Source: Fidelibacterota bacterium (GTDB lineage Bacteria; Fidelibacterota; Marinisomatia; Marinisomatales; TCS55). From it: a stretch of DNA of 47,379 bases. Positions 2,688 through 27,459 of the stretch are shown in pieces; position 1 is the first letter of the stretch; the number at the start of each line of letters is the position of its first letter. The stretch covers positions 1-47,379 of the forward strand of contig JBJKZU010000089.1 of NCBI GenBank assembly GCA_045569095.1. Direction: 5' to 3'. A program made the position numbers and the translations under genes. Below the pieces are notes generated by a model, which made no database searches, was not told the DNA's origin, and saw only the letters and a list, made by a program, of their open reading frames with translations.

Positions 2688-2756
2688 ATAGTACTCTATT
2701 AATAGCATTTAATGCTAGTGCATTTTTCTATATAATAAAGACGACTATAATATTAA

Positions 2757-3758: not shown

Positions 3759-3768
3759 ATTTAATTTG

Positions 3769-4650
3769 ATGAATAAACGGTTTAACAATATTTTATTAAT
3801 AACTCGGGCCTATTTAGAGCTTCTAAAACCAAGTATTTTGATCATGGTACTCATAACCACTCTTTTAGGTTATTATCTGGGTAATGAGGGCGCAATATCA
3901 TGGATCAGGCTGACATGGACATTATTGGGAACTGGCTTATCAGCAGGGGGTGCGAGTGCGTTAAATCAATATTTGGAACGTGACCAAGATAAGCTTATGG
4001 AACGTACGTGTAAACGCCCCATACCGGCTGGCGTCTTACAGCCTCAGAGTGCATTATTTTATGGTATAACTGCTGTAATTATCGGAAGTATAATTTTAGT
4101 TATGAAGATAAATACCCTTACTGGCTTTTTATCATTATTAACCGCTTTTATGTATGTCTTAATCTACACTCCTATGAAAAAATTAACCTGGTTGAACACA
4201 TCATTAGGATCAATCCCGGGTGCATTACCTCCGCTAGGCGGCTGGGTGGCTGCGACGGGTAATGTTGATACAGGCGCGTGGATTTTATTTGCCATTCTCT
4301 ACTTATGGCAGCATCCACATTTTTTTGCGATCGCTTGGATGTGTAAAGATGAATATGAAAAAGCAGGTTTTAAAATGCTACCGGTAATTGAACCTAATGG
4401 TTCACGGACAATCCGTCAGATATTTTGGCATCTTACCCTTTTATTTCCAGTATGTTTGTTACCATTTATCATAGGTATGAGTGGTAACATTTATCTATTT
4501 GGTACAACAATATTAACACTGGGGTATTTTTTATCTGCAATTCCCATGTTGAAGGAAAAATCGTCCAAGAATGCTTCCCGAATACTTAAAGCGTCTGTTC
4601 TTTATCTACCATTATTGATAGTGATCATTATCATTGATAAAGGAATTTGA
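3769..4650 (+). CDS. ctaB: protoheme IX farnesyltransferase (heme O synthase)
   Basis: UbiA-family motif NQYLERDQDKLMERTCKRPIPAG, multi-TM. I prefer the ATG at 3769 over the TTG at 3766 given in the ORF track. Confidence 0.9.
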   Translation: MNKRFNNILLITRAYLELLKPSILIMVLITTLLGYYLGNEGAISWIRLTWTLLGTGLSAGGASALNQYLERDQDKLMERTCKRPIPAGVLQPQSALFYGITAVIIGSIILVMKINTLTGFLSLLTAFMYVLIYTPMKKLTWLNTSLGSIPGALPPLGGWVAATGNVDTGAWILFAILYLWQHPHFFAIAWMCKDEYEKAGFKMLPVIEPNGSRTIRQIFWHLTLLFPVCLLPFIIGMSGNIYLFGTTILTLGYFLSAIPMLKEKSSKNASRILKASVLYLPLLIVIIIIDKGI

Positions 4651-4652
4651 AT

Positions 4653-5234
4653 ATGTTTATTAGACCATGGGTTTATGTAATTGTTTTAGTGATAATAATA
4701 GCTTTAATAGCAGTTATGCAACCTGATGGTGTGGAAGAACAACTACCAATTATTAGTAAGATACCAGAATTTGATTTGGTTGACCAAAACAGTAAACAGT
4801 TTACTCTTGAAAATGTACAAGGCAATGTATGGTTAGCAGATTTTATTTTCACGACATGTTCTGGCCCTTGTCCAATTATGACAGAAAGAATGAGTATGGT
4901 CCAACATGATTTACTCGAAATTGATAAACTAAAATTTGTTTCCTTTACTGTTAACCCGGACTATGATACACCGGAAGTGCTAAAAAAATATGCGCAACGA
5001 TTCGATGTGGATGATAGTTCCTGGTCTTTTGTGACTGGTAAATATGACCAGATTCAGGAATTAATAGCAGATGGATTTAAAATGGGTGATACAGAAGAAA
5101 TTGTTTTTCATAGTACACGTTTTGCTTTGGTTGATCATGAAGGAAATCTTCGTGGTTATTATTCTGGAACAGAGCCGGCAGAACATGAAATTTTGATGCG
5201 TGATATTCAATCTTTAATAAATGATATACGTTAA
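4653..5234 (+). CDS. SCO1/SenC family copper chaperone / thiol-disulfide protein
   Basis: N-terminal TM anchor, a CxxxC motif (FTTCSGPCP) and a downstream conserved His (FHSTRFALVD). I prefer the ATG at 4653; the TTG at 4647 overlaps the ctaB stop. Confidence 0.85.
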   Translation: MFIRPWVYVIVLVIIIALIAVMQPDGVEEQLPIISKIPEFDLVDQNSKQFTLENVQGNVWLADFIFTTCSGPCPIMTERMSMVQHDLLEIDKLKFVSFTVNPDYDTPEVLKKYAQRFDVDDSSWSFVTGKYDQIQELIADGFKMGDTEEIVFHSTRFALVDHEGNLRGYYSGTEPAEHEILMRDIQSLINDIR

Positions 5235-5760
5235 TATGTTTGCCGCAAAAACTGATAATTTTTGGCTGAGAATAATTTATATAATTTCTGTTATAATATC
5301 AGGTGCAGTAGCGTTTTTAATTCTTGGTCCAAGACCAGCAGGAATTGAAGGATCTCTAGATGTTTCTGTTCTGCCCATTATAAATGCAACTCTAAATGGA
5401 ATAACTACTGTTCTATTAATTGTTGGATACATTTTAATTAGACTAAAGAAGCGGCAGCAGCATAAAAATGTTATGTTGTCAGCTTTCGGTACATCAACGG
5501 CATTTTTAATTAGTTACGTTATCTACCATTGGTTTAAAAGTGGCCCGAAGTTGTATACAGGTGATTGGACAACATTATATTACTTCATTTTAATATCCCA
5601 CATTCTGTTAGCTGCTATCATAGTGCCCTTAGCACTTATCACCTTATATCGCGGATGGAATAATCATATTGGTATACATAGAAAAATTGCCAGGATCACT
5701 TTACCACTATGGCTTTATGTCTCTGTGACCGGGGTGATAATTTATTTTATGTTATATTAG
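5221..5760 (+). CDS. DUF420 family membrane protein (commonly linked to heme-copper oxidase operons)
   Basis: About 175 aa with 4 TM helices, last gene of the cox cluster. An alternative start is the ATG at 5236, 1 nt after the SCO stop. Confidence 0.7.
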   Translation: MIYVNMFAAKTDNFWLRIIYIISVIISGAVAFLILGPRPAGIEGSLDVSVLPIINATLNGITTVLLIVGYILIRLKKRQQHKNVMLSAFGTSTAFLISYVIYHWFKSGPKLYTGDWTTLYYFILISHILLAAIIVPLALITLYRGWNNHIGIHRKIARITLPLWLYVSVTGVIIYFMLY

Positions 5761-8700
5761 TGAATTTACTTGAACATTCTGCTGGATATCTTTAACTAAC
5801 CCACCAAAATTTTTATCAATTATGAAACCGTGCTTATAGAAAAATTCTTCTTGGAAGAAACCAACTATAATGTAATGAACACCTTTGTTCCTTAACCTGC
5901 TCATTAGTTCATCCATAAGCCGGTTACTTAAATGTTTATTTCTATATTTTGAGCGAATAACAATCCACTCAAAATGAACAATATTAGTTTTTTCTGATTC
6001 TTTCCAGTAAACGCCTCCAACTAGTCGATCTTTCATGTCAAATATCAGCAAGAATTCATGATTTCCCTGAAATACAGGCTCAAGGTTTGATTTAATTAAT
6101 AAGGAATGGAAACGGGCGATCTCCTTAGGGTGAAAAGGGGGTCTTATTCTATAACCATTGCCGTCATTATCCTCACACAACATAACTAAATCAATACGGC
6201 CATGTTCTCCTTCATCCATTGTTACTAGCTCAATAAAATCTGCAGCTGCCAGATGCTTAAACACTAGGTGAGTAAGAAAATGTTGTTCTTCATCGTTTAC
6301 TTTTAAATTTTCATGGATATGATGAAGTCTATTCTGCAAATCATCTTCGGTTACTTTTCTGGCACGCAAATCGCGCAGTAATTCCCATAATAAATCCTTT
6401 AGTTCCTGGCGTGAATCCTTCAAGCAGGTCATAAGAAAAAATCTTACCCGAGTTTCAGGATATTCTAATAATAGGTCACCAAGGTTATAATCCTGGTACA
6501 ATTCCTGCAATATAGTTGTCCGTGCTTGTAATGTTGCATTTTGGTTTAGATCAAGCCACCGCTCGTATCGCAATGCGGCGAAAACCATTCGTTTGGTTAA
6601 CACTCCATCATTATTCACTTCATCGACAAAATCATCAATTCGATCAATACTTAAACCAAATTCCTTGGCTTTCTTGAGTTTAATCTTGTCTTTGTTTACC
6701 TCTTCTTTAAATTGTGCAATTATAGGTATTCCATATTTGACTTTTGCTACTTGCAATATCACTGAGAAAATTAATTCCCAATCAGCCATTCGTTTTAAAC
6801 CGGGGTATTGATTTTCTGTGTCTTCAATAAATTCACCATAGATACTAAAAAGTAGATTTGCAATTCCCGTTGTATTATTTCGATTAGAAATCGAAATCAA
6901 TCTCGTTCCGGATGCGTAATCATGTTCAGGAATAATCAAGTTTTTTGGAGAAGGATCACCAATTCTAACCTTTTTATCAGAACGCCACCAGAAATTGATG
7001 TAAGCAGCTGCACCACTCCATATAAAATGAAGCCAACGCATTTGCCAACGATCTGGAGCTAAATTTTCCTCAATTTCACTTCTATTTCTTTCGAGATATT
7101 GATGGAGTGTTTCACCGGGGATATATTCTTCGGTATATAAATTATATTCGGGCCAATAACCGCCAAATTCTTCAACAAAATTTTGTCCATGAATAGATGA
7201 TCCCATTATTACTAGCCATTTAATCTCTTCTTCCATGAATATTTTTTCATGCTCTTCATTTATATTAATGGCGAAGTTGTATGCTTCATCATGTTTGGTT
7301 TGAACCAAAATACGTAATACACTTTTTCCATGGTTTTTACCTAAAAAGGTAACCCATACACCATCTGGTTGAATATCGTCTAAATCTATTAAACTATGAT
7401 CATAGAAAAGAAATATCGATTCTCTGATAACAGCTGTATTGATTAGCGCTGATACTAACATTTCTCTTAGTTCAGGTTTTACTAGTTCGTCAAATACGAT
7501 TACATCATTCCAAGTATACTCAGTACCATTCTTCCGGTTAATGGCCAACTTTTGATTCGGTCCGATCCATGAGCGAAAACCATTCACTAGGTTATATTGT
7601 GCCTTTTGAGCGTATGAAATGATACTTTTTGGACAATCTGAAATTTGCCACCAATATAATTCTGCACGTGCCCAGATATATTTTGTCGGATGATTAATGC
7701 CATAGTTAGCAACAAGCGGTAGTAATATCTGAATAAATGAGAGTTGCTCTTTTGTGATCCTTTTAATATCCTTTCTAAATTGACCAAGTTTCGACAAAAT
7801 AGCCTCAAAATGATTGTCTTTTAATAATTTTACATTTACTGTAAATCCATTTTTTGATTTCTCTTCATAATATTGCTGATGGGTCTCAGATAACAATTCA
7901 AAAAATAGTTCTCCGGATAATTCTGGGATCATTGTCTCTATAGCTTTCATTCGAAAAGATGGATCAGTGAAATTTCTAAAGCTTATTAAAATGTTGAATG
8001 CAATTCGAGTGAGGTCACCATGATTAGATTCCAATAGATAGTTAAATGGAATAAAACCGTTTAATTGTCCAGCATATAATTGTCTGGTTGCTTTATGCAA
8101 ATTACCAAGATCAGGTAAACTGACAGAATCTTCAATATTTACCATATCTTTATCACTATGATCAGTAATTGTCGGAAACTCTAGCTGTAGAATTTTTATT
8201 GGTTCAAATTTTGTTAATTGAAATGCACTCTTACCGATAAATTTTGCGAACGTACTATTGCCTAACCATAATTCTGGACTCAGGAGTAATTCCTGGATAT
8301 CAAGACTGTCTTCCAGTGTATGATAAATAAAATCACCAATTACCAGTTTGGAATTATTCCACGATAACTTTAAACTGATCTTATTATTCTTAATGGATAT
8401 TTTTGAACCATTCCATTTTACATCATTTCTGCTGACTCCTTTTTCACGCAGGAGCCAATTTGGAATATGGATCTGATAATTATTGTATGATAAAGTGATA
8501 TGATTTTTCTCATACATGGGATTAATTATCTCATGGAAATTCTTCAAAATCTGTTTTCGTTTATATGTCCCCTTTTGTGTCAATTCGTCATCTGAATTAA
8601 AATCACGTTTAATAATTGCAAAATTGATCACGCGTTCAAATGGCGCAAGGAAACTATTCACCGATTGAACCAGAGAACTATAGTATTCACGGATTGTAAC

Positions 8701-10371
8701 TAAGCTTGCATTGGAAATATCCATTGGCAGACTATCCGGTTCTGAATAAATAAGTAAAGTATTGAATTCTAAACCATCTCCCACAAGGAATGCTGATTTT
8801 ATTCCATCAAAATCTTGGAACATGTTTTCAATTTTTTGGGGTGAAATAGTTTGACCACGACTATTTTTGTAAATTTCTTTTTTACGGTCAATTATATAAT
8901 AATGATCATATTTATTTTTAAATATATCCCCAGTATGAAACCAACCATCCACTAGAGTGGAACCGTAATTTTTACCAAAATATGATGAAGATACGTAGGG
9001 TCCATTTATAAGTAATTCTCCATCATCAGCTAAAGTAAGTTGTATTCCGGGTAATGGTACACCTACTGAATCAGGCTGGTATTCATTAATAGGTGTCATT
9101 GTAATTCCACCAGTTGCTTCGGTCATACCATAGCCACTTAATAGGTTAATTCCGTTACTCTGAAAAAAACGAAATACATCAGGGTCCAAATATCCAGCAG
9201 CTGAAAGCCCATATTTCAAATTTCCACCCGTTATTTTGTTTACAATATTTTTTATTTCTTTTTCTTTTCCATCACTAACGGGTTTGATTGAATCTGTGTG
9301 TTCCATCAATTGGATCCATCTTTTCGGTACACTGATAAAAATGGTAGGCTTAATTAGACGAAAGTCCTTTAAAAGTGATTTAAAATATGGAGATTCTGCG
9401 AATGTATAGGTTGCACCCCAAAAAATAGACCCCAATAATTCAAAGTATCTGCCAAATGTATGGTACAATGGTAGAAAGCAAAGGAATATATCGTCGCACG
9501 AAAAATCGGGAAGTGCCAATGCACGGGCAAAACGTTTGGTAACTATATTTTCTTGGGTGAATACAATTCCTTTTGGTTCATCAGTTGTTCCAGAGGTATA
9601 CATTACTGTGGCAAGATCATGCATAGAACACTGGTTGATACGTTTTAGCACATTTATATTAACAGAATCAACTGCTTGTGAAATAAAACTTTCCCATGGT
9701 TTGGCAAAGATAATTGCTTCTGCAGGGTCATCCAGGTGATAGATATCCAACGATTTTTGTTCAACTTTTGATTCTCTAAGAATAATTTGCACCGATTGTC
9801 CACCAATAAATAATTGTGTAATAGTTGAATTATCAATAATGAATGCTAGATGTTCTGGAGTAGTTGTAACTGGAATCGGTACTATTGTTATATGAAATGA
9901 AAGGCAAGCTAAGTCTATCAGCGCACCACGAATCGAATTCTCGGTAAATATGCCAATCGTGATATTTTTATCCGATATTGATTCAATAGCACAAAGCGCT
10001 TGACCAATTTGAATAATTTGGTCCCATATTTCTTGGTAAGTGAAATTGCGTATTTGATTTCCTTCAATTTCCTGAAAACATATTTTATCCCCATAATATT
10101 GTGCTCGGTGATTGATCAAATGTCCGACTGTTAATTTAGATTCAAGTATTAATTCATGAATTACCTCGAACCATTCTTCAATTTTATTTTCTTCGGAAAT
10201 AGTTTTATTTACGATCGATAAATGCCCTAATTCTAGAAAATCGTGTAGTTCCTTCTGATTAGGGTTTGAATCTTTTATCTGACTCGCTTTTGCAAAAAGA
10301 TCATTGGCTGTAGGTTGACTATCAAACAGGCTTTCAAGGTATTGAGAATGGGCTGATTTTTGGTTATTCAT
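5752..10371 (-). CDS. 1,539-aa multidomain protein: ANL-family acyl-AMP/CoA ligase + large unknown region with kinase-like core + C-terminal GNAT acyltransferase
   Basis: A single uninterrupted ORF. ANL motifs: MYTSGTTDEPKG, GYGMTEATGG, FHTGDI, IIDRKKEIYKNSRGQTISP. GNAT-like C-terminus: EWIVIRSKYRNKHLSNRLMDELM...FYKHGF. Confidence 0.85.
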   Translation of the reverse strand: MNNQKSAHSQYLESLFDSQPTANDLFAKASQIKDSNPNQKELHDFLELGHLSIVNKTISEENKIEEWFEVIHELILESKLTVGHLINHRAQYYGDKICFQEIEGNQIRNFTYQEIWDQIIQIGQALCAIESISDKNITIGIFTENSIRGALIDLACLSFHITIVPIPVTTTPEHLAFIIDNSTITQLFIGGQSVQIILRESKVEQKSLDIYHLDDPAEAIIFAKPWESFISQAVDSVNINVLKRINQCSMHDLATVMYTSGTTDEPKGIVFTQENIVTKRFARALALPDFSCDDIFLCFLPLYHTFGRYFELLGSIFWGATYTFAESPYFKSLLKDFRLIKPTIFISVPKRWIQLMEHTDSIKPVSDGKEKEIKNIVNKITGGNLKYGLSAAGYLDPDVFRFFQSNGINLLSGYGMTEATGGITMTPINEYQPDSVGVPLPGIQLTLADDGELLINGPYVSSSYFGKNYGSTLVDGWFHTGDIFKNKYDHYYIIDRKKEIYKNSRGQTISPQKIENMFQDFDGIKSAFLVGDGLEFNTLLIYSEPDSLPMDISNASLVTIREYYSSLVQSVNSFLAPFERVINFAIIKRDFNSDDELTQKGTYKRKQILKNFHEIINPMYEKNHITLSYNNYQIHIPNWLLREKGVSRNDVKWNGSKISIKNNKISLKLSWNNSKLVIGDFIYHTLEDSLDIQELLLSPELWLGNSTFAKFIGKSAFQLTKFEPIKILQLEFPTITDHSDKDMVNIEDSVSLPDLGNLHKATRQLYAGQLNGFIPFNYLLESNHGDLTRIAFNILISFRNFTDPSFRMKAIETMIPELSGELFFELLSETHQQYYEEKSKNGFTVNVKLLKDNHFEAILSKLGQFRKDIKRITKEQLSFIQILLPLVANYGINHPTKYIWARAELYWWQISDCPKSIISYAQKAQYNLVNGFRSWIGPNQKLAINRKNGTEYTWNDVIVFDELVKPELREMLVSALINTAVIRESIFLFYDHSLIDLDDIQPDGVWVTFLGKNHGKSVLRILVQTKHDEAYNFAININEEHEKIFMEEEIKWLVIMGSSIHGQNFVEEFGGYWPEYNLYTEEYIPGETLHQYLERNRSEIEENLAPDRWQMRWLHFIWSGAAAYINFWWRSDKKVRIGDPSPKNLIIPEHDYASGTRLISISNRNNTTGIANLLFSIYGEFIEDTENQYPGLKRMADWELIFSVILQVAKVKYGIPIIAQFKEEVNKDKIKLKKAKEFGLSIDRIDDFVDEVNNDGVLTKRMVFAALRYERWLDLNQNATLQARTTILQELYQDYNLGDLLLEYPETRVRFFLMTCLKDSRQELKDLLWELLRDLRARKVTEDDLQNRLHHIHENLKVNDEEQHFLTHLVFKHLAAADFIELVTMDEGEHGRIDLVMLCEDNDGNGYRIRPPFHPKEIARFHSLLIKSNLEPVFQGNHEFLLIFDMKDRLVGGVYWKESEKTNIVHFEWIVIRSKYRNKHLSNRLMDELMSRLRNKGVHYIIVGFFQEEFFYKHGFIIDKNFGGLVKDIQQNVQVNSLI
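5797..6159 (-). other. GNAT-like acyltransferase domain of the 1,539-aa protein (aa ~1405-1525)
   Basis: Beta-strand / motif-A-like segment VHFEWIVIRSKYRNKHLSNRLMDELMSRL, followed by IIVGFFQEEFFYKHGF. Boundaries are approximate. Confidence 0.6.
6772..7374 (-). other. protein-kinase-like / APH-like core, possibly catalytically degenerate (aa ~1000-1200)
   Basis: Motif order runs GKSVLRILVQTK, EEEIKWL, hinge-like YTEEYIPGETL, then catalytic-loop-like RIGDPSPKNLII. There is no His before the Asp and no DFG. Assigned by eye only. Confidence 0.35.
8512..10119 (-). other. AMP-binding (ANL) adenylation domain of the 1,539-aa protein (aa ~85-620)
   Basis: Full ordered set of ANL core motifs. It looks paralogous to the FAA1-type ligase at 28948-30777. 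Confidence 0.85.
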
Positions 10372-10399: not shown

Positions 10400-10428
10400 T
10401 AAAAAAAAAGGCCTTCTAATCGAAGGCC
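10400..10428 (-). terminator. rho-independent terminator ending the TonB-receptor / cargo / PorV-like operon
   Basis: On the minus strand: GGCCTTC-GATTA-GAAGGCC (stem halves at 10409-10415 and 10421-10427), followed by a 9-U tract (10400-10408). It lies 23 nt downstream of the PorV-like stop. Confidence 0.8.
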
Positions 10429-10450
10429 CTTTTGAAATAATAAAATATTA

Positions 10451-11548
10451 CTAAAGTCCGATCGAAAATGTTAGTCTATTGACTAACCCTAAGACACCCA
10501 TATCAGATACAGAATAATCTACACTAAAGTTGTAAGGTATAAAGGGAAACATTGCTGATGAAAGGCCAAAACCGAAGGCTGTTTTACTAGTATATCCATG
10601 AGCATTATCTTTATCAAGCATATCAGGTAGGTCATCAGAATCAATACTGTCATCTTCATCATCACTAAACTGAATAAATTTACTTTCTAGTCCAGCTCGC
10701 AGATAAAGACCACCCATTACTTTGACTTCAACGCCTCCAGCATAATATGGGTTATAATCTCTTGGGTCGTAATAGTCAATACTAACAGTGGCTTCAAGCG
10801 CATCATTTTTCATAATCGCATTTGGACCAACAGGTGTAATTGCGAACCCAGCACGAAAAGCCATGGGTAAGGCCCATTCTTCCGTTTGTAATTGTGCGAT
10901 TACATCTGGGTTAGCTTCTTGATCTGCATAGGGGTCCGTATCAATTTTTAAATCTGTACCCTTAAGCTGTAGTTTAGTTCCAAAATTTGTTATAGCCATT
11001 CCAATTATTAACCCAGAGAATCCTGTTTGGTATTGCGAACCCATATCAAAACCAAAAGCGGTGGCACTGGAAAAAGAAATGGATTCCTGGATTATTTTTC
11101 CATGAACACCAACTGTGAATCGATCCGAAATTTTTCGGCCGAACCCTAAACCCAGGGCCACATCAGAAGCACGGAAAACGACTTTACTATCCTGGTCAAA
11201 CTCAGTAGTCTTTTTCATTTCGCCCATATCCAAGTTATTAAGACTTATACCGATATTGCCGATTGTACCCACGGGTATAACCAGACCAAAATAACTGTGT
11301 TTCATATCAGCGATCCAATTGTATTGAGTTAGTAAAATCTGTATATCCGTGGCATGGGCAATGCCAGCAGGATTCCAGTGTAAGGCAGATGCATCGGTGA
11401 CGCTAGCTGTGTACGCACCACCAAGAGCCATGGCTCTGCTGCCTACACCAATCTTTAAAAAATTGGCAGCTGATGTACCTGTATTATCAAACTGCGCAAA
11501 CATAAAACAGTTAAAAGAGATTATAGCTATAATTATGTTTTTATTCAT
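10451..11548 (-). CDS. PorV/PorQ-family (FadL-like) outer-membrane beta-barrel
   Basis: Signal peptide, N-terminal signature FLKIGVGSRAMALGGAYTA...ALHWNPAGIA, alternating beta-strand pattern, and a C-terminal aromatic-rich strand. Confidence 0.7.
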   Translation of the reverse strand: MNKNIIIAIISFNCFMFAQFDNTGTSAANFLKIGVGSRAMALGGAYTASVTDASALHWNPAGIAHATDIQILLTQYNWIADMKHSYFGLVIPVGTIGNIGISLNNLDMGEMKKTTEFDQDSKVVFRASDVALGLGFGRKISDRFTVGVHGKIIQESISFSSATAFGFDMGSQYQTGFSGLIIGMAITNFGTKLQLKGTDLKIDTDPYADQEANPDVIAQLQTEEWALPMAFRAGFAITPVGPNAIMKNDALEATVSIDYYDPRDYNPYYAGGVEVKVMGGLYLRAGLESKFIQFSDDEDDSIDSDDLPDMLDKDNAHGYTSKTAFGFGLSSAMFPFIPYNFSVDYSVSDMGVLGLVNRLTFSIGL

Positions 11549-14500
11549 TTTATCACCGCTAGTTTTCCTGTGAATTCTTTGTCATTTGCAATAACGTGGA
11601 AGACATATACCCCAAACGATACTTCCTGATTATTATATGTACGTAGATCCCAGGCTTCAATACTAGGGCCTCTGTAACCTGGACTGTTCACATCATGTTT
11701 GATTACTTGTACTAATTCTCCGGCCGTATTGAAAATTCGAATTAAGCATTCTTCCGGTAGACCCATGAATTGAACCTCCCGTATGAATGCGATATGCTCA
11801 TAAACGGACGTAGCATTATATGGATTCGGCACAACGACAATTTCCTCTAAAATGCTATCGGTTACAGTATAAGCATTTGCAGTAGTTTCTATATGATAGA
11901 CATCATTGCCAGGCGATAAAGGATTTCTAAAATATATGTTATACACATCTCCTGGCTGAAAAAGAGTTTCATTCTTGTTGAATTGGAACATCCATCCAAT
12001 ATTGGTATTGGTATAGTAATCTGCCATGCCGACGCCTGTATAATCTTCATACACAGGCATTACAAAGAAATTTTTGATGAATTTGTAATGGCTTGGATTT
12101 TCAGCGTCCTCTTCGTAGATAGGCTTTGATCCAGCTGCCATATAAATAACAGCATTGATTTTTACGTTATCTTCAAGGGACCAGACCTCAAAAGGTATAT
12201 CTATTGTCTCTATGACACTTAGAGTTGCATTGAAATAAGTAGCAATAGAACCATCATTTGTAAATCTGAACTCAATATCCTTTTGTAGTAAATCACTATC
12301 AGGCCTATCTGATGGTTGAGGATCCAAGGGTGTATTTTCAACGAATCCAGCCCATGTACCATCATTCGAATTTGGATTAATGCCATTAAATAATATAGAG
12401 CCTGTTGTGTCCGAATTATTGGTTTGCTTTGCTGAGTCAAAACTGGTAACGGACCACGATCCTAAGGAAAACACGGGAATAAAACCATCCACGACATGTT
12501 TTAGTTGGCCAGATTCCACATCAGTATCATTTGATACAACAATGTCACCTGTCGATGTATTAACCATGTTCCATGAATTTACCGTTGCTGTATCACCAAC
12601 TATTGTTTGATTAAAGGTTACTTCATAGTTATAACCTTTACTTTCGAAATCTTGGGGCGATAATGAATCACCAAGGAAATCAAGGACAAAAGCGTCAGCT
12701 GGGACCAATTGTAAGATAGCATCAGACTTTCCTGATGTGTGGGTCGCCGTTTCAGGTATAGATCCTCCAGTGTATCCGGCTGCTTTTTTTTGTGCAACGA
12801 TTGCTATCGTATTATCATTATCACTGTAAAAAGCGTTCTTTGCTTTGGGATTCTCCATTGGGTCAACAGGCGCACCCGCCCAGTCATCAACGCCATCATA
12901 AGCTGATACAGCATACCAATATTCATAACCATTAATGATATTATTATCAACGTATGAATATTTTACCCCAGAATTAGAACCTAGATTATAATAAATGAGA
13001 GGATCCGTCATTACATGAGCCCCACTTTGATTATCATCATAATCATATATAGCTAACGGTTTATAGAAATCTGTAGGATCTCCATTTACATCAGTTATAA
13101 CCGTTCCCCATGTATTGCCTCTATCTGTACTTCGATAAACTCGATAACCTTGAAATGCATTATTCCCAGTAACGGGATCAATAGAAAATTCACTGCGATC
13201 ATCCCACATCAAAACAACTCTTCCTTCATCAACCGAAGATTGGACGACTGGTTGATCAGGTGGTTTTGGAGTAGCGCAGTTGTTATCATAAAGAGATTGA
13301 AACAGTTTTGCATTTCGAATTAAATCAGTTTCATTTATTCCAGCAAAATCTGCAAAGGTAAAAATTACTTGCTCTCCAGGAGCAACATCCATTGGCCCAC
13401 CTGCAATTGCCCAAGTAATATCGGGTCCATAACTATATGGTTTTTGAAAAATATCAAACTCATTAGGTTCAATATTTTGAGGGGTTTGAATTCCGTGGGT
13501 CATCTGCTCATTATATGCTTGCGCATCGCTTTGGGCATCTTGACTATACTCAAAGGTATAAAAGTTGGTTACACCATATGTGGTATCAGTGCCGTCGCTG
13601 TTATATTTTGTTAAATCAAGAAACTTAGCACCTATCCATCCAACACCAGATGTGAGGTAGCCTTGTACTGCATCATCACGATCATAAACAATAGCAAAAT
13701 TTTCTAAAAGATGAGCATCTGTTGTGTCTACTAATTTTTCAGCAATATGAGGATCATTTTCAGTAATAAATAGTGCCATATCATCTGTCCATTCCGCACC
13801 GCCCTGTTCCGGTGCGTCTGGATCTCCGGCAATACCCATATAGAGGTCTTTCAGTGTATCTTTACCAACATTCGTCATTTTTTGAATAAAGATCAATCCG
13901 TCATTCCCAAAGGTACTAGAGTAGTTCAATACCCAGACATCAAATCGTACGTTTAATGGCCCGACACCCTGATTGCTTTCAAACGTATTGCCTTCTTGAG
14001 GGTCGTTATCTGTTACTACAAAATAGGCTTCACGATCCGCCTGCACTCCCAATCCGCATGGTGCATCAGGAAAACCACCCGGCCCCAGCTCTGGCTCAAT
14101 GCCTGGGAAATACAACGTATCAGAGCTGCCATCAGCATTATAAACAACTGACTCAAAAGTACCGGTTGGATCTTTTTCCCGTGGCCATAAAGCAGGCCAT
14201 GATTCAGGTACGTCACTAAATGCAATACCAATATTTGCATCAGTATCCGCATAACCGGCATCATATCCAGGTAGGGGTTCAAATTCTTCTTCATGATCGC
14301 GTACACTGCCACGGACGCCAACGGATACGGATGGTAAGCCATTAATTAACGCTCCTACCATTGGCGATTGCGTCCAGTAATAAGTGCAACAACCAGATTT
14401 CGCCATACTGCCCGCCGGGAATTCATGATTCAGTCCCCAGCGATCGTAACCATAAATTGCTGCATTAGACATCCGCAAGACCATGTTGCCTTTATCTAGT

Positions 14501-14682
14501 ACGGATAGTTTACGGTCTGCGTAGCCCATGGATCTATTTAGGCGTTCTGGTATTCTACCTTTTGCTGGGGCTACGTAATAATCATAGTAATCAGCTTTTG
14601 TAATATTGGGAATACCCTCTGAATTAATACTAGAACAAAAAACGAAAGTAATAAATGTAATTAATTTTATCTTATTTATCAT
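11545..14682 (-). CDS. 1,045-aa secreted protein of unknown function with an FN3-like segment and a T9SS-like C-terminal domain
   Basis: Signal peptide MINKIKLITFITFVFCSSINS and an FN3-like segment (VVLMWDD...GYRVYRSTDRGNTW). No catalytic motif recognised. Its start overlaps the receptor stop (TAATG) and its stop overlaps the PorV-like start (ATGA). Confidence 0.75.
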   Translation of the reverse strand: MINKIKLITFITFVFCSSINSEGIPNITKADYYDYYVAPAKGRIPERLNRSMGYADRKLSVLDKGNMVLRMSNAAIYGYDRWGLNHEFPAGSMAKSGCCTYYWTQSPMVGALINGLPSVSVGVRGSVRDHEEEFEPLPGYDAGYADTDANIGIAFSDVPESWPALWPREKDPTGTFESVVYNADGSSDTLYFPGIEPELGPGGFPDAPCGLGVQADREAYFVVTDNDPQEGNTFESNQGVGPLNVRFDVWVLNYSSTFGNDGLIFIQKMTNVGKDTLKDLYMGIAGDPDAPEQGGAEWTDDMALFITENDPHIAEKLVDTTDAHLLENFAIVYDRDDAVQGYLTSGVGWIGAKFLDLTKYNSDGTDTTYGVTNFYTFEYSQDAQSDAQAYNEQMTHGIQTPQNIEPNEFDIFQKPYSYGPDITWAIAGGPMDVAPGEQVIFTFADFAGINETDLIRNAKLFQSLYDNNCATPKPPDQPVVQSSVDEGRVVLMWDDRSEFSIDPVTGNNAFQGYRVYRSTDRGNTWGTVITDVNGDPTDFYKPLAIYDYDDNQSGAHVMTDPLIYYNLGSNSGVKYSYVDNNIINGYEYWYAVSAYDGVDDWAGAPVDPMENPKAKNAFYSDNDNTIAIVAQKKAAGYTGGSIPETATHTSGKSDAILQLVPADAFVLDFLGDSLSPQDFESKGYNYEVTFNQTIVGDTATVNSWNMVNTSTGDIVVSNDTDVESGQLKHVVDGFIPVFSLGSWSVTSFDSAKQTNNSDTTGSILFNGINPNSNDGTWAGFVENTPLDPQPSDRPDSDLLQKDIEFRFTNDGSIATYFNATLSVIETIDIPFEVWSLEDNVKINAVIYMAAGSKPIYEEDAENPSHYKFIKNFFVMPVYEDYTGVGMADYYTNTNIGWMFQFNKNETLFQPGDVYNIYFRNPLSPGNDVYHIETTANAYTVTDSILEEIVVVPNPYNATSVYEHIAFIREVQFMGLPEECLIRIFNTAGELVQVIKHDVNSPGYRGPSIEAWDLRTYNNQEVSFGVYVFHVIANDKEFTGKLAVIK
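11548..11838 (-). other. C-terminal beta-sandwich resembling a T9SS sorting domain (last ~97 aa)
   Basis: VVVPNPY...LIRIFNTAGELVQVI...FGVYVFHVIANDKEFTGKLAVIK has the motif order of Por_Secre_tail-type CTDs, but the sequence is divergent. Confidence 0.5.
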
Positions 14683-17600
14683 TAGAGCCTCACCGTGATA
14701 CCAATTTCAATATGCCTTGGTGCCTTCCAAAAATAAGGACGGTACATCCACATTGGTGATGTATTTGGATTGGTAGATTCGGTTGGTGTTCCTGTATCAC
14801 TGAAAACATTATTGACATTTGAATTATCCAGTACATTGTCTATATCAGCGTAAAGCCTAAGGTTGGCTAATTTAAGTGGGATATCATAATAGGCCCGCAT
14901 ATTCACTATCGCAGTGCTAGGCATCCTTGCCGAATAGGGATCATCAATGGGACGACCTCTAGCATCTGTTGGAGTATATGGCAAACCACTTCCGTAATTA
15001 CCGATAATATTTAATCCGAATCCCTTTGGATGCCTATAATCAACGCCATAATTAATTACATGAGTTTGATCCCAGGACATAGTAAATGTACGGTTATAGT
15101 CATGCCAGCCATAGACCGAAGCCAAATAGGCCACGTCCCAATGGAAAGATTCATTTGGCGCACTACCTTCCGCCCTAGAAAGCGTGTAGTTCAAGTACCA
15201 GGCTAAATTATTTTTAAAACTCTGCCGTAGTTCCAGTTCAAATCCACGACTATTAGCATAATCATGGTTTTCGTAGAGAGCGTACTGGGAAGGGTTTGCA
15301 TCATATATCGTCGAGGCAATTAAATCGTAAATATCTTTGTAATAAATTGTAAGACTAAGAATGTAAGTTTCTACAAGATGAGCACGGAAACCAAATTCAT
15401 ACTGCACAGTTCGCTCCGGCTTTACATTTGGACTACCAATTGTTGGTATATAAAAATCAGCAGTGTTAACAGGGAATGGGGCATAAGTATTCCCAAAATT
15501 AAAGTTATCGATATTTATTCCTGTCAGGCCTGGGGCAAGTCCACCCCCTCCATTTGTATTAGTGTAGCTGTATGCGTTTGATAAATTAGGATAGTCGAAA
15601 AAGTGTCCGTAACTCGCGTGAAATGCAATATTATCTGTAATGGGGTAACCAAAACCTATCCGGGGACTCCATTTTTGCTTATGGCTAGCCTTTTTTGCAG
15701 CTTCAAAAATGTAATTACCGTCACTATCACGTTTTGGGTTTCCATCATCATCAAGCTCTGCGTAACCCCAATCAGCATCTTCCATCTGGTCTTGCGTAAG
15801 TTGACTTAGATCCGATGGTTCATAGGTCTGACCATCATATTCATATAATGGTGTTCTACTAGGTTCAGGATAGCGTGAATTGGGATTTAGGCCATCGAGT
15901 CGCAGGCCTACATTAATGATGAATTCTTTGTATTCCATTTTATCCTGGATATAAAAAGATGATTCCTCAGGCTTGAATTCATACATTATCCAGCTTGGAT
16001 CTGAAGTGTTGCCAAAAGGACCACCGCCAATTGACGATCCAGAGAAATTTGAAATCTCATGATTTTTCCGGTCAAAACCTGTTTTGATCTGGTGGACATC
16101 GTTCACCTGCCAGGTTAATTCGGCACCAAATTCGCTGTAACTTGTACCATACCACTGGTAATGATGATACGTTGAATAACCAGGTCTGATTGTATCGCCA
16201 TAAAAGTTTACAACGGGGTAACTACCATAAAATTCATAGTTTGACGTACCATCATAGGCATCGCCTTCTCTAAGTATAGGGTCAACACCCACACTATATT
16301 CGCCATTACCATCTACGTCTTCATAATCTTCTTGATCTGGTATACCATCATCATTTTCGTCGCGGAAAATTGTCCATAACCCATCTCCATCCCAATCATT
16401 ATAATATTCTCCATCATCCCAGGTACCATTATTATTACTATCTTTCCAGTATTCTGCGGAACCGAAAGGACTGTACTGTCCGTCACCATTGTAATCTGCA
16501 TATGGTTCAGCATAATAACTTAGCCAGTTCATATTATCCCCAGCCGTGACTGTTCCTGGAATATAGCCTTCCCAATCACTGGGTATTGACACTTCTTCGC
16601 CCCATAGTTCATGCTTTTTATTTAATAACGGTTTATATCCATTGTGGCTGTTCCTGGAATAATTTTGCCCTTTTAAGGTGAAAAACATATTTTCTGTTAT
16701 GGCGTAGTTCAGTTTGAAATGAGTTTGCTCTGTTGTACCATAGCTGGTGGAATAACGACCAGGTAATTGCCTATAACTCATACTAAAGCCTTTCCCTTTA
16801 GATTGATAGAGATTAGTGCCTAGCGTAAGTTTTGCATTTTTGATTGGTTTTATAACCAATTTACCTGTGATTCGCTGGTACTCATTAAAAGTGCCTGTCT
16901 CTTCCCAGGCTCCCTTTTTTAATTCAACCGAGTCTGAAATTCCATTTGAGGTTATATCAGCCATTGCATATGTATCTTCACCGGCATCATACATGCCATC
17001 ATTATCAACATCAACTGTTAACACATCTCGTGGCAACTGATTTTTCCAAAGGTTGCCCTTCGATTCGTTAAAATCTGCAGTAAAATTAAAGTTTGCTATG
17101 GAACCAATGCCTGGAAATACAGGCCCACTAACATTGATAATATTTCTGCTTGTACCCCAGTTATTACTATTACCACCAAATTGATCCGAAGCTGTCGTTA
17201 CGCCGGCATGATAATTAGGAGTGCCTTCCTTGGTTACAATATTTACAATACCGCTCATAGCTTTTCCATACTCTGCATTAAATGCACCAGTAATCAAGGA
17301 TAGTTCAGAAATCGCATCTTTGGCTATATCCATGCTCATCCCACCATATAAAGCGTTTTCAATAAGAAAACCATCTACCAGATATGAAATTTCACCACTA
17401 CGGCCGCCCCTTAGATGAATACCGCTATTGTCATTTTCATTTTCTACCACGCCGGCCATTGTATTTATTATTTCATCAAAGGAGTTCACGGGCATATTCA
17501 CAATATCATCATCTTCAATCGTGGTAGTACTGGCAGTTTGATCCCGTACAATTGCTGGTCTTTTTGCTTCCACGATAACTTCCTCTCCTTCAACAGCAGA

Positions 17601-17906
17601 GATTTCCATCTTGAAATTCACAGTGGTAGTGCGGTCGGCGTTAACGCGGATATCTGTAATTGTAATCGTTTTATAGCCAATATAAGATGCACTGATAGTA
17701 TATGACGCTGCTGGTACATTCAGAATGATGTAGTTACCTTCCATATCCGATGCGCTACCAATACTGCTGCCTTTTAAAAGGATATTGACACCAAATAATG
17801 CTTCGCCTGTCTCTGTATCGGTAATTTGGCCGACAATTTTACCGGTATCGCCGGCAAATAACATGGATACCCAAAGAAATGAGACAATAAATAGTTTTAT
17901 TTTCAT
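14682..17906 (-). CDS. TonB-dependent outer-membrane receptor with an N-terminal CarboxypepD_reg domain
   Basis: Signal peptide, CarboxypepD_reg-like beta-sandwich (GKIVGQITDTETGEALFGVNILLKGS...GNYIILNVPAASYTISASYIGY), plug motifs (IHLRGGRSGEISYLVDGF, ITGAFNAEYGKAMSGIVNIVTKEG) and a long beta-barrel. Confidence 0.85.
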   Translation of the reverse strand: MKIKLFIVSFLWVSMLFAGDTGKIVGQITDTETGEALFGVNILLKGSSIGSASDMEGNYIILNVPAASYTISASYIGYKTITITDIRVNADRTTTVNFKMEISAVEGEEVIVEAKRPAIVRDQTASTTTIEDDDIVNMPVNSFDEIINTMAGVVENENDNSGIHLRGGRSGEISYLVDGFLIENALYGGMSMDIAKDAISELSLITGAFNAEYGKAMSGIVNIVTKEGTPNYHAGVTTASDQFGGNSNNWGTSRNIINVSGPVFPGIGSIANFNFTADFNESKGNLWKNQLPRDVLTVDVDNDGMYDAGEDTYAMADITSNGISDSVELKKGAWEETGTFNEYQRITGKLVIKPIKNAKLTLGTNLYQSKGKGFSMSYRQLPGRYSTSYGTTEQTHFKLNYAITENMFFTLKGQNYSRNSHNGYKPLLNKKHELWGEEVSIPSDWEGYIPGTVTAGDNMNWLSYYAEPYADYNGDGQYSPFGSAEYWKDSNNNGTWDDGEYYNDWDGDGLWTIFRDENDDGIPDQEDYEDVDGNGEYSVGVDPILREGDAYDGTSNYEFYGSYPVVNFYGDTIRPGYSTYHHYQWYGTSYSEFGAELTWQVNDVHQIKTGFDRKNHEISNFSGSSIGGGPFGNTSDPSWIMYEFKPEESSFYIQDKMEYKEFIINVGLRLDGLNPNSRYPEPSRTPLYEYDGQTYEPSDLSQLTQDQMEDADWGYAELDDDGNPKRDSDGNYIFEAAKKASHKQKWSPRIGFGYPITDNIAFHASYGHFFDYPNLSNAYSYTNTNGGGGLAPGLTGINIDNFNFGNTYAPFPVNTADFYIPTIGSPNVKPERTVQYEFGFRAHLVETYILSLTIYYKDIYDLIASTIYDANPSQYALYENHDYANSRGFELELRQSFKNNLAWYLNYTLSRAEGSAPNESFHWDVAYLASVYGWHDYNRTFTMSWDQTHVINYGVDYRHPKGFGLNIIGNYGSGLPYTPTDARGRPIDDPYSARMPSTAIVNMRAYYDIPLKLANLRLYADIDNVLDNSNVNNVFSDTGTPTESTNPNTSPMWMYRPYFWKAPRHIEIGITVRL
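16272..16505 (-). other. cluster of EF-hand-like DxDxDG calcium-binding loops inserted in the receptor barrel (aa ~468-545)
   Basis: DYNGDGQYS, DSNNNGTWDDGE, DWDGDGLW, DENDDGIPDQED, DVDGNGEYS. One further loop, DVDNDGMYDAGE, lies at aa 299-310 (16971-17018). Confidence 0.6.
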
Positions 17907-18059
17907 GGTCGCGTTTCCTCCAGCTTTTAATTTTATAAATATTTATGATAATATAATAAATACACTCGTAACAAGATACACAGATTTAATAAACATTCAC
18001 ATTGAGGAAATGACACTCTTGATGTAAGTTTAACAAGAAATTCTTTTGGGGAGAAAACT

Positions 18060-19769
18060 ATGAGTAAGAAAAACGGAACAGGGAAACAACAATCAGTCCT
18101 ATTGTCGCAAGCGGAGATCAGTAAGTTGCTTGAAACAATACCATCTAATCTACGAGGTTATATTGATAGCTTACAAAATCAAATATCCAACATGTCTGCT
18201 ATTGGGCTAGCCCTTTCAAAAGAAAAGGATATGGATAAACTATTGGAAATGATCTTACTTGAAGCGAAACGTATTTCTAATGCTGATGGGGGCACCTTAT
18301 ACATGATGACTGATGATCAACGGTTAAAATTTTCCATTATGATTACTGATTCACTCAATATCCATATGGGTGGCACCTCTGGGAAAGAAATTCCTTTTTA
18401 CCCGGTAAAATTGTATATGGATGATGGCAAACCAAATAAGACCATGATTGCCGCAAATGCAGGTTTAACAGGATATACAATTAATATACCTGACGCCTAT
18501 AAGGCTAAGGGGTACGATTTTGCCGGTACAAAAGCTTTTGATGATAAAACTGGCTATCGGTCAAAATCATTTTTAACTGTACCGCTAAAAAATCACGAAG
18601 ATGAAATTATTGGTGTACTGCAATTATTGAATGCCCAAGATATTAAAACAAAAAAAGTGATACCTTTTTCAGAAGGTGTTCAAAAAAGTGTGGAAGCACT
18701 TTCCAGTCAGGCTGCAGTAGCGATCACTAATAAAAACCTAATCAAAGATCTTGAAGTATTATTCGAATCTTTCATCAAGTTGATTGCGTCGGCCATAGAT
18801 GCGAAATCACCCTATACAGGTGGTCATTGTTCTAGGGTTCCTGAAATAACTATGATGCTGGCAGAATCAGTAAATGAGATAAATGATGGTCCTTTTGCTG
18901 GTATACAGTTTACGGATAAGGAAATGTACGAATTGAAAATTGCGGCCTGGCTTCATGATTGTGGTAAAGTGGCTACACCAGAGGCTGTAGTTGACAAAGG
19001 AACAAAGCTGGAAACGATCTATGATCGTATACATACTGTAGCAACGAGATTTGAAGTACTAAAACGAGACGAGGAAATAAAATATTTGAAAAAGCAGCTT
19101 AAGATTCAAAAAGATGATTCCTTGATTGAAAATCAAAAGAAAGATGCCTTGAAAAAAGCAAGGACACTCTATCTGAAAAGAATCAAACAACAGGATGATG
19201 ATAAGGCGTTTATCGAGGAATCAAATGTTGGTGGTGAGTTCATGTCACAGGATCGTAAAGATAGGGTTAATAAGATAGCCTCATATCGTTGGAAGGATAA
19301 TGGTAGCCTAAAACCGTTTTTTTCCGAGGATGAGATATACAACCTTTGTATTAGCAGGGGAACGCTTACACCAGAAGAAAGAAAAATTATCAATGATCAC
19401 ATAGTTGTCACCATTGATATGCTGGAACAATTACCATATCCGAAGCATCTGCGCAATGTACCAGAATTTGCTGGTGGTCATCATGAAAAGCTGGATGGGA
19501 CTGGGTATCCAAAAGGGTTGAACCATTCTGAAATGTCTGTCCAGGCGAAAATTATGGCCATAGCCGATATTTTTGAAGCACTAACTGCCCGCGATAGACC
19601 ATATAAAAAAGGGAAAACTTTAAGTCAAGCAATGCGAATACTTGGTTTCATGAAAAATGATGCCCATATCGATACGGAATTATTTGAGGTATTTGTGAAG
19701 GAAAAAATATATCTGAAATACGCAGAAAGTTTTTTAGATCCTGAACAAATTGATAAAGTAGAATTATAA
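18060..19769 (+). CDS. GAF domain + HD-GYP domain protein (probable c-di-GMP phosphodiesterase)
   Basis: GAF-like N-terminal half, then HD motif WLHDCGK and GGHHEKLDGTGYPKGL. A GGGGAG Shine-Dalgarno lies 6 nt upstream of the ATG. Confidence 0.85.
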   Translation: MSKKNGTGKQQSVLLSQAEISKLLETIPSNLRGYIDSLQNQISNMSAIGLALSKEKDMDKLLEMILLEAKRISNADGGTLYMMTDDQRLKFSIMITDSLNIHMGGTSGKEIPFYPVKLYMDDGKPNKTMIAANAGLTGYTINIPDAYKAKGYDFAGTKAFDDKTGYRSKSFLTVPLKNHEDEIIGVLQLLNAQDIKTKKVIPFSEGVQKSVEALSSQAAVAITNKNLIKDLEVLFESFIKLIASAIDAKSPYTGGHCSRVPEITMMLAESVNEINDGPFAGIQFTDKEMYELKIAAWLHDCGKVATPEAVVDKGTKLETIYDRIHTVATRFEVLKRDEEIKYLKKQLKIQKDDSLIENQKKDALKKARTLYLKRIKQQDDDKAFIEESNVGGEFMSQDRKDRVNKIASYRWKDNGSLKPFFSEDEIYNLCISRGTLTPEERKIINDHIVVTIDMLEQLPYPKHLRNVPEFAGGHHEKLDGTGYPKGLNHSEMSVQAKIMAIADIFEALTARDRPYKKGKTLSQAMRILGFMKNDAHIDTELFEVFVKEKIYLKYAESFLDPEQIDKVEL

Positions 19770-23455: not shown

Positions 23456-23905
23456 ATGTCGGGCGATAATATAATAAGACGTGAATATGAATCTGACTAT
23501 GAGGTCAGTTATGAAAAAGTTAAAGAATATGTGCGTGTATTGGATGATAATAATCCCTATTATACAGATCGTGAATTTGTAAAATCCCTTGATGGCGGGC
23601 ATCCATTTGCACCCCCTACATTTGCTGCGATTTATTGTCAGCCAGCGCTGGAACATCTTTATTTCGACCCTGAATTCTCAAAATTGGTACCCCGTTTAGT
23701 TCATGGTGAACAGGAATATCATTTTTATGAGCCTGTGCGTGCAGGAGATATAATTCATACAAATGCAGTTATAGATAAAAATTATACTAAAACTAACCAG
23801 GCCGGTAAAGTCCATCGAATATTCGAGATCAAGACCAAATCAATTAATCAAGATAATAAACTAGTTTGTACCGGTCTTTATACGTTATTAATTAGAGGGG
23901 AATGA
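23456..23905 (+). CDS. MaoC-like hot-dog protein, N-terminal-type (non-catalytic) hydratase subunit
   Basis: 149 aa with a hot-dog-fold pattern (VHGEQEYHFYEPVRAGD). It is paired with the following MaoC gene by an ATGA overlap. Confidence 0.65.
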   Translation: MSGDNIIRREYESDYEVSYEKVKEYVRVLDDNNPYYTDREFVKSLDGGHPFAPPTFAAIYCQPALEHLYFDPEFSKLVPRLVHGEQEYHFYEPVRAGDIIHTNAVIDKNYTKTNQAGKVHRIFEIKTKSINQDNKLVCTGLYTLLIRGE

Positions 23906-27455: not shown

Positions 27456-27459
27456 GTTT

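Follow-up and report, generated by a model that had tools for sequence, protein, structure and literature searches.

TonB-dependent receptors of the SusC type normally pair with a SusD-like surface lipoprotein, and a receptor gene that instead lies in line with genes for a large secreted protein and a PorV-like outer-membrane barrel raises the question of whether the three products work together and, if so, as what. Here we address this question for a locus of a Fidelibacterota bacterium (GenBank assembly GCA_045569095.1, contig JBJKZU010000089.1), situated in a stretch of 47,379 nucleotides that is referred to below as the window. On its minus strand the window encodes, in this order, a TonB-dependent receptor of 1074 amino acids (aa), a protein of 1045 aa (hereafter the middle protein) and a barrel of 365 aa (Table 1). 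An earlier note on this DNA had proposed that the trio may be an uptake module in which a type IX secretion system (T9SS) cargo replaces the usual SusD-like lipoprotein and may bring along its own PorV-like shuttle or anchor.

We report that the trio is a cassette general to a large, hitherto undescribed family and that its three genes very probably form one functional unit. The reading that we prefer, and to which we assign a probability of roughly 55%, is that the T9SS delivers the middle protein to the surface as a partner of the receptor, where an uncleaved C-terminal domain (CTD) anchors it on the PorQ-like barrel. Specifically, the receptor would be a TonB-energised importer, while the middle protein would be exported by Sec and then cross the outer membrane through the T9SS by means of a type A CTD. 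The middle protein would not be released; its uncleaved CTD would stay bound to the dedicated PorV/PorQ-family barrel at the cell surface, and its N-terminal part, a predicted beta-supersandwich followed by an FN3 domain, would be exposed there as a component that captures ligand for the receptor or acts as its lid. In Bacteroidia this role falls to SusD or BtuG lipoproteins, and in Proteobacteria to Slam-delivered lipoproteins and hemophores.

Conservation of the cassette

A survey of one genome per GTDB species returned 78 loci. As tblastn with the three window proteins showed, the receptor, the middle protein and the PorV-like barrel are encoded in this order on one strand in all of them, and a member is absent only where the contig ends. 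The hosts belong to Marinimicrobia/Fidelibacterota, KSB1, Kryptonia, Zhuqueibacterota, Calditrichota, Rhodothermales and other Bacteroidota, and chance adjacency of the three genes is excluded by the same gene order in so many loci of several phyla. Among these hosts is a cultured member of the Rhodothermales with a complete genome (CP030158), Roseithermus sacchariphilus RA, and two paralogous cassettes (L018 and L029) occur in a single genome assembly (SAT138). The middle protein has homologues in Marinimicrobia/Fidelibacterota (up to 100% identity), in bacteria assigned to the Fibrobacteres-Chlorobi-Bacteroidetes ('FCB') group and in KSB1, and its named relatives are all annotated 'hypothetical protein'. 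All named hosts belong to FCB phyla, except that the contig of one orthologue (P0423) is labelled 'Candidatus Odinarchaeota archaeon' at NCBI, although it is almost certainly bacterial and mis-binned.

The family extends far beyond these orthologues. An exhaustive profile search gave 6930 representatives of 50%-identity clusters, 1043 of them at E≤1e-30, and most members of this superfamily share profile positions ~413-1036 only, a stretch that runs from the end of the supersandwich through the FN3 domain and the variable sandwiches to the CTD. The genomic context was sampled for eight members, 967-1592 aa in length (one KSB1 ortholog and seven distant relatives), and each of them (8/8) is encoded directly between a CarboxypepD_reg receptor and a barrel of ~340 aa, with gaps of 2-131 nt; a PorV Pfam match is recorded for six of the eight barrels. 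Therefore the arrangement is general to the superfamily, and the co-conservation of the trio across FCB phyla that the earlier note had asked about is borne out strongly, both by the 78 loci and by the sampled relatives. No description of such a cassette was found in Pfam, NCBIfam or the searchable literature, and clustering of the flanking open reading frames (ORFs) revealed no other gene family common beyond subclades.

Gene junctions, transcription and co-divergence

Rereading of the sequence confirmed the three ORFs, their start/stop overlaps and the closing terminator as previously noted. The receptor and middle-protein genes share one nucleotide (...CTC TAA TG ATA..., with TAATG at the junction), the middle-protein and barrel genes share four (...AAA ATGA ATA..., with ATGA), and the barrel gene is followed by a terminator-like hairpin (Table 1); the G+C content of the window is ~37%. 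Marine metatranscriptome contigs cover all three genes, deeper than the downstream gene, and bridge each of the two junctions (run X5, 10458-11851; run X3, 14155-14850); they are assembled contigs and may include DNA. Skips of 68 nt at 11851-11920 and of 88 nt at 14592-14681, the latter over the codons for the middle protein's signal peptide, occur in single contigs and are probably due to strain divergence or alignment artefacts rather than to processing.

Distance matrices were computed for the parts of 59 complete cassettes. They are strongly congruent (r 0.82-0.93), and the cassette is therefore inherited as a unit. Partial Mantel tests on the same cassettes associated the N-terminal domain of the middle protein with the receptor (r=0.57, p=0.001) and not significantly with the barrel (r=-0.12), while the CTD was associated with the barrel (r=0.32, p=0.001) and to a lesser degree with the receptor (r=0.16). 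This pattern fits a contact between the N-terminal domain and the receptor together with a contact between the CTD and the barrel.

The C-terminal domain of the middle protein

At the level of the family, profile searches clearly place the C-terminus of the middle protein among T9SS CTDs; it is type A-like, and its closest matches are PorZ and PorU, whose CTDs are retained. Of 18 CTDs taken from orthologues (51-78% identity to that of the window protein), all 18 matched the PorZ C-terminus, 15 the PorU C-terminus, 10 the general sorting-domain model TIGR04183 (best 2.9e-7) and 1 the type B CTD model. The last ~100 aa of the window protein alone gave weak matches to the same two C-termini (2.8e-5 for PorZ and 3e-4 for PorU), and the top PDB match of the CTD profile is the CTD of PorU (6za2). 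Moreover, the motifs VVPNPY, FGVY and GK(F/L)AVIK correspond to motifs B, D and E of type A CTDs, and two orthologues (P0110 and P0113) carry the NCBI name 'T9SS type A sorting domain-containing protein'. The resemblance to T9SS sorting domains that the earlier note had reported is thus upheld for the family, although the window sequence itself scores under the cutoffs of TIGR04183 and PF18962.

The CTD is also the best-conserved segment of the middle protein. Its identity between the window and KSB1-type orthologues is 50%, compared with 37% for the rest, and its mean pairwise distance (0.40) is below those of the N-terminal domain (0.445), the barrel (0.54), the receptor (0.55) and the variable region (0.725). 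In a domain predicted to be a secretion signal such conservation is unusual. In Porphyromonas gingivalis the CTDs of PorZ and PorU are retained on PorQ and PorV, respectively, and it has been suggested that cognate PorV-like barrels shield the CTD from cleavage (PMC10202324). A dedicated 'shuttle or anchor', as put forward in the earlier note, fits well with a CTD that is closest to these retained CTDs and is the most conserved segment, and the partial Mantel result suggests, indirectly, that CTD and barrel would interact.

These data also bear on the fate of the middle protein after export. If the barrel were a dedicated T9SS shuttle only, PorU would cleave the CTD, the middle protein would be released or covalently linked to a surface glycolipid and would there bind or process a polymer, and the receptor would import the products with no stable complex of the three proteins. 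Such a course is what canonically happens to type A CTD cargo, the published model (PMC10202324) has PorV as a shuttle, TIGR04183-type motifs are present in the CTDs, and the conserved synteny fits it equally well. Nevertheless, we regard it as unlikely. A signal that is to be discarded would not be expected to be the most conserved part across phyla, or to resemble the generic model less closely than it does the two known retained CTDs; if the general PorV sufficed, it would be hard to see why each cassette, in thousands of paralogous families, has a barrel of its own; and sequence and fold searches with the middle protein showed no catalytic domain.

The PorV/PorQ-family barrel

The assignment of the third protein to PorV/PorQ-type barrels instead of FadL channels held in profile searches. 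It matches the PorV/PorQ family model NF033709 at 157.4 bits (cutoff 90) over residues 25-354 and the Pfam PorV model PF19572 at 35.6 bits (cutoff 27), and all of 22 orthologous barrels, drawn from several phyla, show the same pattern of family and equivalog scores, with the order PorQ > PorV2 > PorV. A profile of the orthologous barrels matches the structure of Flavobacterium johnsoniae PorV (6h3i_F) at 1e-16. A fatty-acid channel of the FadL type was rejected since the barrel has no match to PF03349 (Toluene_X) at E≤0.01 and 22/22 orthologues fall into the PorV family; a few orthologues have weak precomputed PF03349 matches beside PorV. With the equivalog models the barrel stays below the cutoffs of PorQ (NF033711, 109 of 220 bits), PorV2 (NF052325, 77 of 325) and PorV (NF033710, 63 of 250), and the matches cover the N-terminal half only. 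Because all three cutoffs are missed, the barrel is, as judged by profile scores, a distinct subfamily that is neither PorV, PorQ nor PorV2.

A barrel of this kind might also act without the T9SS, being itself the translocon or insertase as well as the anchor, with the CTD-like immunoglobulin (Ig) domain as a docking domain only, as in Slam (type XI) systems. The cassette is self-contained and its flanks are variable, and the strict pairing of one barrel with one cargo resembles the clusters of Slam, substrate and receptor (PMC5449769, PMC8560813, PMC8406197). On the other hand, translocation of folded proteins is not known for PorV-family barrels, and a Pfam search gave no match to DUF560 (Slam) on any of the three cassette proteins. 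Named hosts that are FCB bacteria only, apart from the probably mis-binned Odinarchaeota contig, fit dependence on a lineage-specific machine, and the same genomes encode ordinary T9SS-CTD proteins. Taken together this makes a T9SS-independent route quite unlikely.

As for delivery by the T9SS, its core genes (sprA/sov, porK/L/M/N or gldK/L/M/N, porU, porZ) were found neither among the window ORFs scanned (47-kb window) nor in the sampled flanks of related loci. Another T9SS-CTD protein is encoded in the window, a GHL10 protein at 40846-42687 (TIGR04183, 23.3 bits), and flanks in Marinimicrobia encode T9SS-CTD proteins at 37-40 bits (one at 37.7). Genome bins of SAR406 contain up to 24 Por-CTD genes (PMC5596340), and a T9SS-CTD xylanase of Roseithermus has been published (PMC6539836). 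These observations are indirect evidence for a T9SS, on which the delivery that we favour would depend.

The TonB-dependent receptor

The first gene had been described as encoding a CarboxypepD_reg receptor with a plug, and Pfam and NCBIfam matches agree. Taking as the mark of a TonB-dependent transporter an N-terminal plug inside a 22-strand beta-barrel, with PF07715 and PF00593 above cutoff, both were found (40.5 bits for the plug with a cutoff of 23.9, and 91 bits for the barrel with a cutoff of 27). Between its CarboxypepD_reg domain and its plug the receptor has a TonB-box-like motif, (G)EEV[IV]V.A.RP, which is kept, at the motif level, in orthologues of all phyla sampled; together with the plug motifs RGGR, DG, FNAEYG and NIVTKEG it is conserved across 59 orthologues. 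The conservation of both the TonB box and the plug motifs in different phyla argues for a genuine TonB-gated importer.

The receptor is not of the SusC type. Its match to the SusC/RagA model TIGR04056 (76 bits, cutoff 368) is confined to residues 23-231, and its sole PDB sequence match is an isolated SusC N-terminal domain. No SusD-family match was obtained among the window ORFs scanned, which included every ORF of SusD size, and no SusD was called in eight related loci for which gene and Pfam tables were available. Since the receptor is not a member of the SusC/RagA family, the missing SusD is not in itself anomalous; of the 'SusD-less uptake module' in the earlier note, the absence of SusD from the window stands, but the anomaly does not. 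The receptor also carries Asp-rich loop insertions (residues ~297-325, ~420-540 and ~700-740) with repeated DxDxDG-like motifs of the calcium-binding type, e.g. DVDNDGMYDAGED and DWDGDGLW...DENDDGIPDQEDYEDVDGNGEY. The loop residues are present in about half of 13 aligned orthologues, the longer receptors of 1067-1097 aa, and the shorter KSB1/Kryptonia-type receptors (~870-950 aa) are mostly without them.

Two further explanations turn on the receptor. The cassette might be a module for surface assembly or adhesion, or a T9SS accessory, in which the receptor-like barrel is a structural platform and nothing is taken up. A TonB-dependent-receptor-like outer-membrane protein of P. gingivalis, PG0534, is listed as essential for T9SS function (PMC5445135), and the Ig/FN3-like domains of the middle protein are typical of adhesins; that catabolic and regulatory genes are not linked to the cassette points the same way. 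We nonetheless consider this very unlikely in view of the TonB box and plug motifs conserved across phyla and since diversification into over 1000 families, with a genome having several of the paralogues, looks like that of substrate-specific uptake loci rather than core machinery. It is hardly credible that the receptor helps to move the middle protein outward, to be anchored by the barrel afterwards, as with Myxococcus Oar (a CarboxypepD_reg TonB-dependent protein required for PopC secretion), for although the N-terminal CarboxypepD_reg architecture is the same and there are weak matches to OMP_b-brl_4/OMP_b-brl_3-type barrels, the middle protein has a T9SS-type signal of its own and a multidomain protein of 1045 aa would be an improbable passenger for a plugged 22-strand barrel.

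Fold of the middle protein

Profile searches of Pfam, NCBIfam and PDB gave no match over the full length of the middle protein. Read by eye, without a predictor, its N-terminus (MINKIKLITFITFVFCSSINSEG) has the basic n-region and hydrophobic core of a Sec signal peptide. That the cargo has no lipobox was confirmed, and a lipoprotein identity was rejected, as Cys16 is not conserved in homologues. The full-length AlphaFold model is mediocre (predicted local distance difference test, pLDDT, 69.9) and consists of an N-terminal part followed by further beta-sandwiches and the C-terminal sandwich; its Foldseek matches are mainly multi-Ig chains. A second model of residues 25-650 (626 aa), based on a deeper alignment of 66 sequences, reached a pLDDT of 83.6 and a predicted template modelling (TM) score of 0.82 and shows a beta-supersandwich and then an FN3 domain. 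The FN3-like segment reported earlier is accordingly present in the AlphaFold model and among the Foldseek matches, but not in Pfam. The supersandwich comes nearest in fold to the YidC P1 domain, to aldose 1-epimerase and to N-terminal domains of GH94, GH149 and GH116 enzymes, and a carbohydrate-type ligand would be a weak guess from this model. Neither the Pfam, NCBIfam and PDB searches nor Foldseek with the N-terminal model detected a catalytic fold or domain, in line with the lack of a catalytic motif that had been noted for this protein.

Points that weigh against the proposed mechanism

Several results count against a T9SS-delivered, CTD-anchored partner of an importer. The CTD of the window protein is itself sub-threshold (TIGR04183, 17.3 bits with a cutoff of 23; PF18962, E=0.054), and the supersandwich matches are weak, with TM scores ≤0.5 and E values of 1e-3 to 1e-5 in Foldseek. 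The co-divergence data are of the mirror-tree kind, which is indirect evidence and may arise from variation in rate that the proteins share. The RNA data are assembled contigs with possible carry-over of DNA, and their depth is a poor measure of expression. The start/stop overlaps are restricted to the clade of the window, so that translational coupling by overlap, which the earlier note had read from them, is tenable there but not in other clades, where short gaps separate the genes.

Finally, clustering of the flanks revealed no ligand, regulator or catabolic gene consistently linked to the cassette, and for this reason 'uptake' is deduced from the receptor family only. The flanking genes conserved within subclades (an AMP-binding/GNAT fusion, a GAF-HD gene, a polyhydroxybutyrate-depolymerase-like esterase, a beta-galactosidase, an amidohydrolase and other CTD proteins) do not point to a common substrate.

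Features and other genes of the window

The features of the cassette are collected in Table 1. In the gap upstream of the receptor gene, a sigma-70-like match (TTGTTA-18-TATCAT, 17974-17945, minus strand) is weak and by consensus only, and the count of promoter-like sites in this region is not above the shuffled expectation; a ribosome-binding site, GGAGGA (17921-17916, minus strand), lies 9 nt ahead of the receptor ATG. The divergent gene that shares this 153-bp promoter region encodes a protein with GAF and HD (HD_5/HD-GYP-like) domains (18060-19769, plus strand) and occupies the same upstream position in 15 Marinimicrobia loci; its product could be a local regulator.

Table 1. Positions of the cassette genes, their predicted domains and the adjoining control signals in the window
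Feature	Residues	Positions	Strand	Basis
Operon upstream control region, inside 153-bp gap to divergent GAF/HD-domain gene		17916-17974	-	Consensus matches only
TonB-dependent receptor, 1074 aa, signal peptide		14682-17906	-	Pfam, NCBIfam
Receptor, CarboxypepD_reg-like N-terminal domain	24-112	17571-17837	-	CarbopepD_reg_2, 68 bits
Receptor, TonB-box-like GEEVIVEA	106-113	17568-17591	-	Motif, conserved in 59 orthologues
Receptor, plug	120-219	17250-17549	-	Plug, 40.5 bits
Receptor, beta-barrel	482-1025	14832-16463	-	TonB_dep_Rec_b-barrel, 91 bits
Middle protein, 1045 aa, all-beta, secreted (predicted)		11545-14682	-	AlphaFold, Foldseek, conservation profile
Middle protein, putative Sec signal peptide	1-~22		-	Read from sequence
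Middle protein, conserved N-terminal region, galactose-mutarotase-like beta-supersandwich	~30-470	13273-14595	-	AlphaFold/Foldseek
Middle protein, FN3-like domain	~478-610	12853-13251	-	AlphaFold/Foldseek
Middle protein, variable beta-sandwich region	~641-945	11848-12762	-	AlphaFold, conservation profile
Middle protein, type A T9SS CTD-like beta-sandwich with motifs VVPNPY, FGVY, GKxAVIK	948-1045	11548-11841	-	Profile matches
PorV/PorQ-family outer-membrane beta-barrel, 365 aa, signal peptide		10451-11548	-	NF033709, PF19572
Intrinsic-terminator-like hairpin, 12-bp stem with 5 G-C pairs, then T-run		10405-10433	-	18 nt past barrel stop codon

Just downstream of the cassette terminator, a gene at 5752-10371 (minus strand) encodes a fusion of 1539 aa, with an AMP-binding (acyl/aryl-CoA ligase-like) N-terminal part, a middle of ~800 aa without family matches and a C-terminal GNAT acetyltransferase. 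Its position is kept in 15 Marinimicrobia loci (38-95% identity) and not in other phyla. Genes for an aa3-type cytochrome oxidase and heme A/O synthases (1-5760), and a branched-chain amino-acid ABC transporter adjoining genes for acyl-CoA ligase, enoyl-CoA hydratase, short-chain dehydrogenase/reductase and AtuA (23456-35452), indicate an aerobic heterotroph that would use amino acids and acyl compounds.

At 35460-47268 there is a cluster that resembles one for salvage of amino sugars or peptidoglycan fragments. It encodes a NagX-like transmembrane acetyltransferase, a GH3 and beta-lactamase-fold fusion of 973 aa, the GHL10 protein with its type A T9SS CTD, the anhydro-MurNAc kinase AnmK, a DUF819 protein, a nucleotidyltransferase/hexapeptide protein and another protein of the beta-lactamase fold. 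The cluster is of note since the cultured Fidelibacter multiformis is reported to live on exogenous muropeptides (PMC11652737). No family match was obtained with Pfam and NCBIfam for the ORF at 36595-37788 (minus strand, 397 aa), or with NCBIfam for those at 4647-5234 (plus strand, 195 aa) and 5221-5760 (plus strand, 179 aa).

Implications and comparison with known systems

In the dark ocean, few heterotrophs are as abundant as Marinimicrobia (SAR406). TonB-dependent receptors and Por-CTD proteins are plentiful in them (PMC5596340), and with respect to their substrate capture, locus prediction based on SusC/SusD misses these bacteria. We propose tentatively, at slightly less than even odds, that the cassettes represent a large unrecognised class of outer-membrane machines for nutrient capture in FCB bacteria other than Bacteroidia (Marinimicrobia, KSB1, Kryptonia, Calditrichota, Ignavibacteria-like and Rhodothermales lineages), where the T9SS would supply the ligand-binding lid of a TonB transporter and the CTD would be a permanent, non-covalent anchor on a private PorQ-like barrel. 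If so, this would be a third independent solution beside the SusD-type lipoproteins of Bacteroidia and the Slam-delivered lipoproteins of Proteobacteria. With more than 1000 diverged families, the cassette would mark uptake loci in the genomes of FCB phyla beyond Bacteroidia; moreover, it would give the T9SS CTD a new role as a permanent anchor and not a cleaved signal, would give a function to many unexplained PorV/PorQ paralogues, and includes a protein family of ~1000 aa, without a Pfam or NCBIfam model, to define.

Among known systems, the SusC/SusD (RagA/RagB) and BtuB-BtuG pairs of Bacteroidia likewise have a CarboxypepD_reg-like receptor that is co-encoded with a large non-catalytic partner (which in the cassette would also be surface-exposed), and likewise belong to families diversified into many paralogous loci per genome. 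In contrast, the cassette receptor is not SusC/RagA (76 vs 368 bits), and its partner is not a lipoprotein, is unrelated to SusD and BtuG and carries a predicted T9SS CTD, while the third gene encodes a PorV-like barrel.

The Slam (type XI, DUF560) clusters of Proteobacteria are alike in organisation only, combining a receptor, a surface or secreted ligand-binding protein and a dedicated barrel that places it (PMC5449769, PMC8560813, PMC8406197). The cassette barrel is PorV/FadL-like and not DUF560, the putative recognition element of its cargo is a C-terminal Ig-like CTD, where Slam systems have a C-terminal beta-barrel domain or lipid anchor, and the cassettes occur in FCB phyla whereas Slam occurs in Proteobacteria. 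The PorP/SprF-like barrels of Flavobacterium are encoded beside type B CTD cargo (SprB and others), so that there too a cargo-specific PorV-like barrel adjoins its T9SS cargo (PMC10202324). Unlike these, the cassette CTD is type A-like (the type B model was matched by 1/18), the barrel is of the PorV/PorQ and not the PorP/SprF kind, and the unit includes a receptor.

The PorQ-PorZ and PorV-PorU pairs of P. gingivalis also consist of a PorV/PorQ-family barrel and one T9SS protein, whose kept CTD serves as membrane anchor (PMC10202324), as we suggest for the middle protein; the cassette CTD is closest to the C-termini of PorZ and PorU, and among the equivalogs its barrel scores highest on PorQ. 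It differs in that the barrel lies under the cutoffs of PorQ (109 vs 220) and PorV (63 vs 250), in that the cargo is without the beta-propellers of PorZ or the peptidase domain of PorU, and in that barrel and cargo share their operon with a TonB-dependent receptor and exist as thousands of paralogous versions. The parts of the cassette are thus of known kinds. What is new is their combination, i.e. a non-SusC receptor with a T9SS-CTD protein that belongs to no established family and a private PorV/PorQ-family barrel, as well as the breadth of its occurrence and the conserved PorZ/PorU-like CTD.

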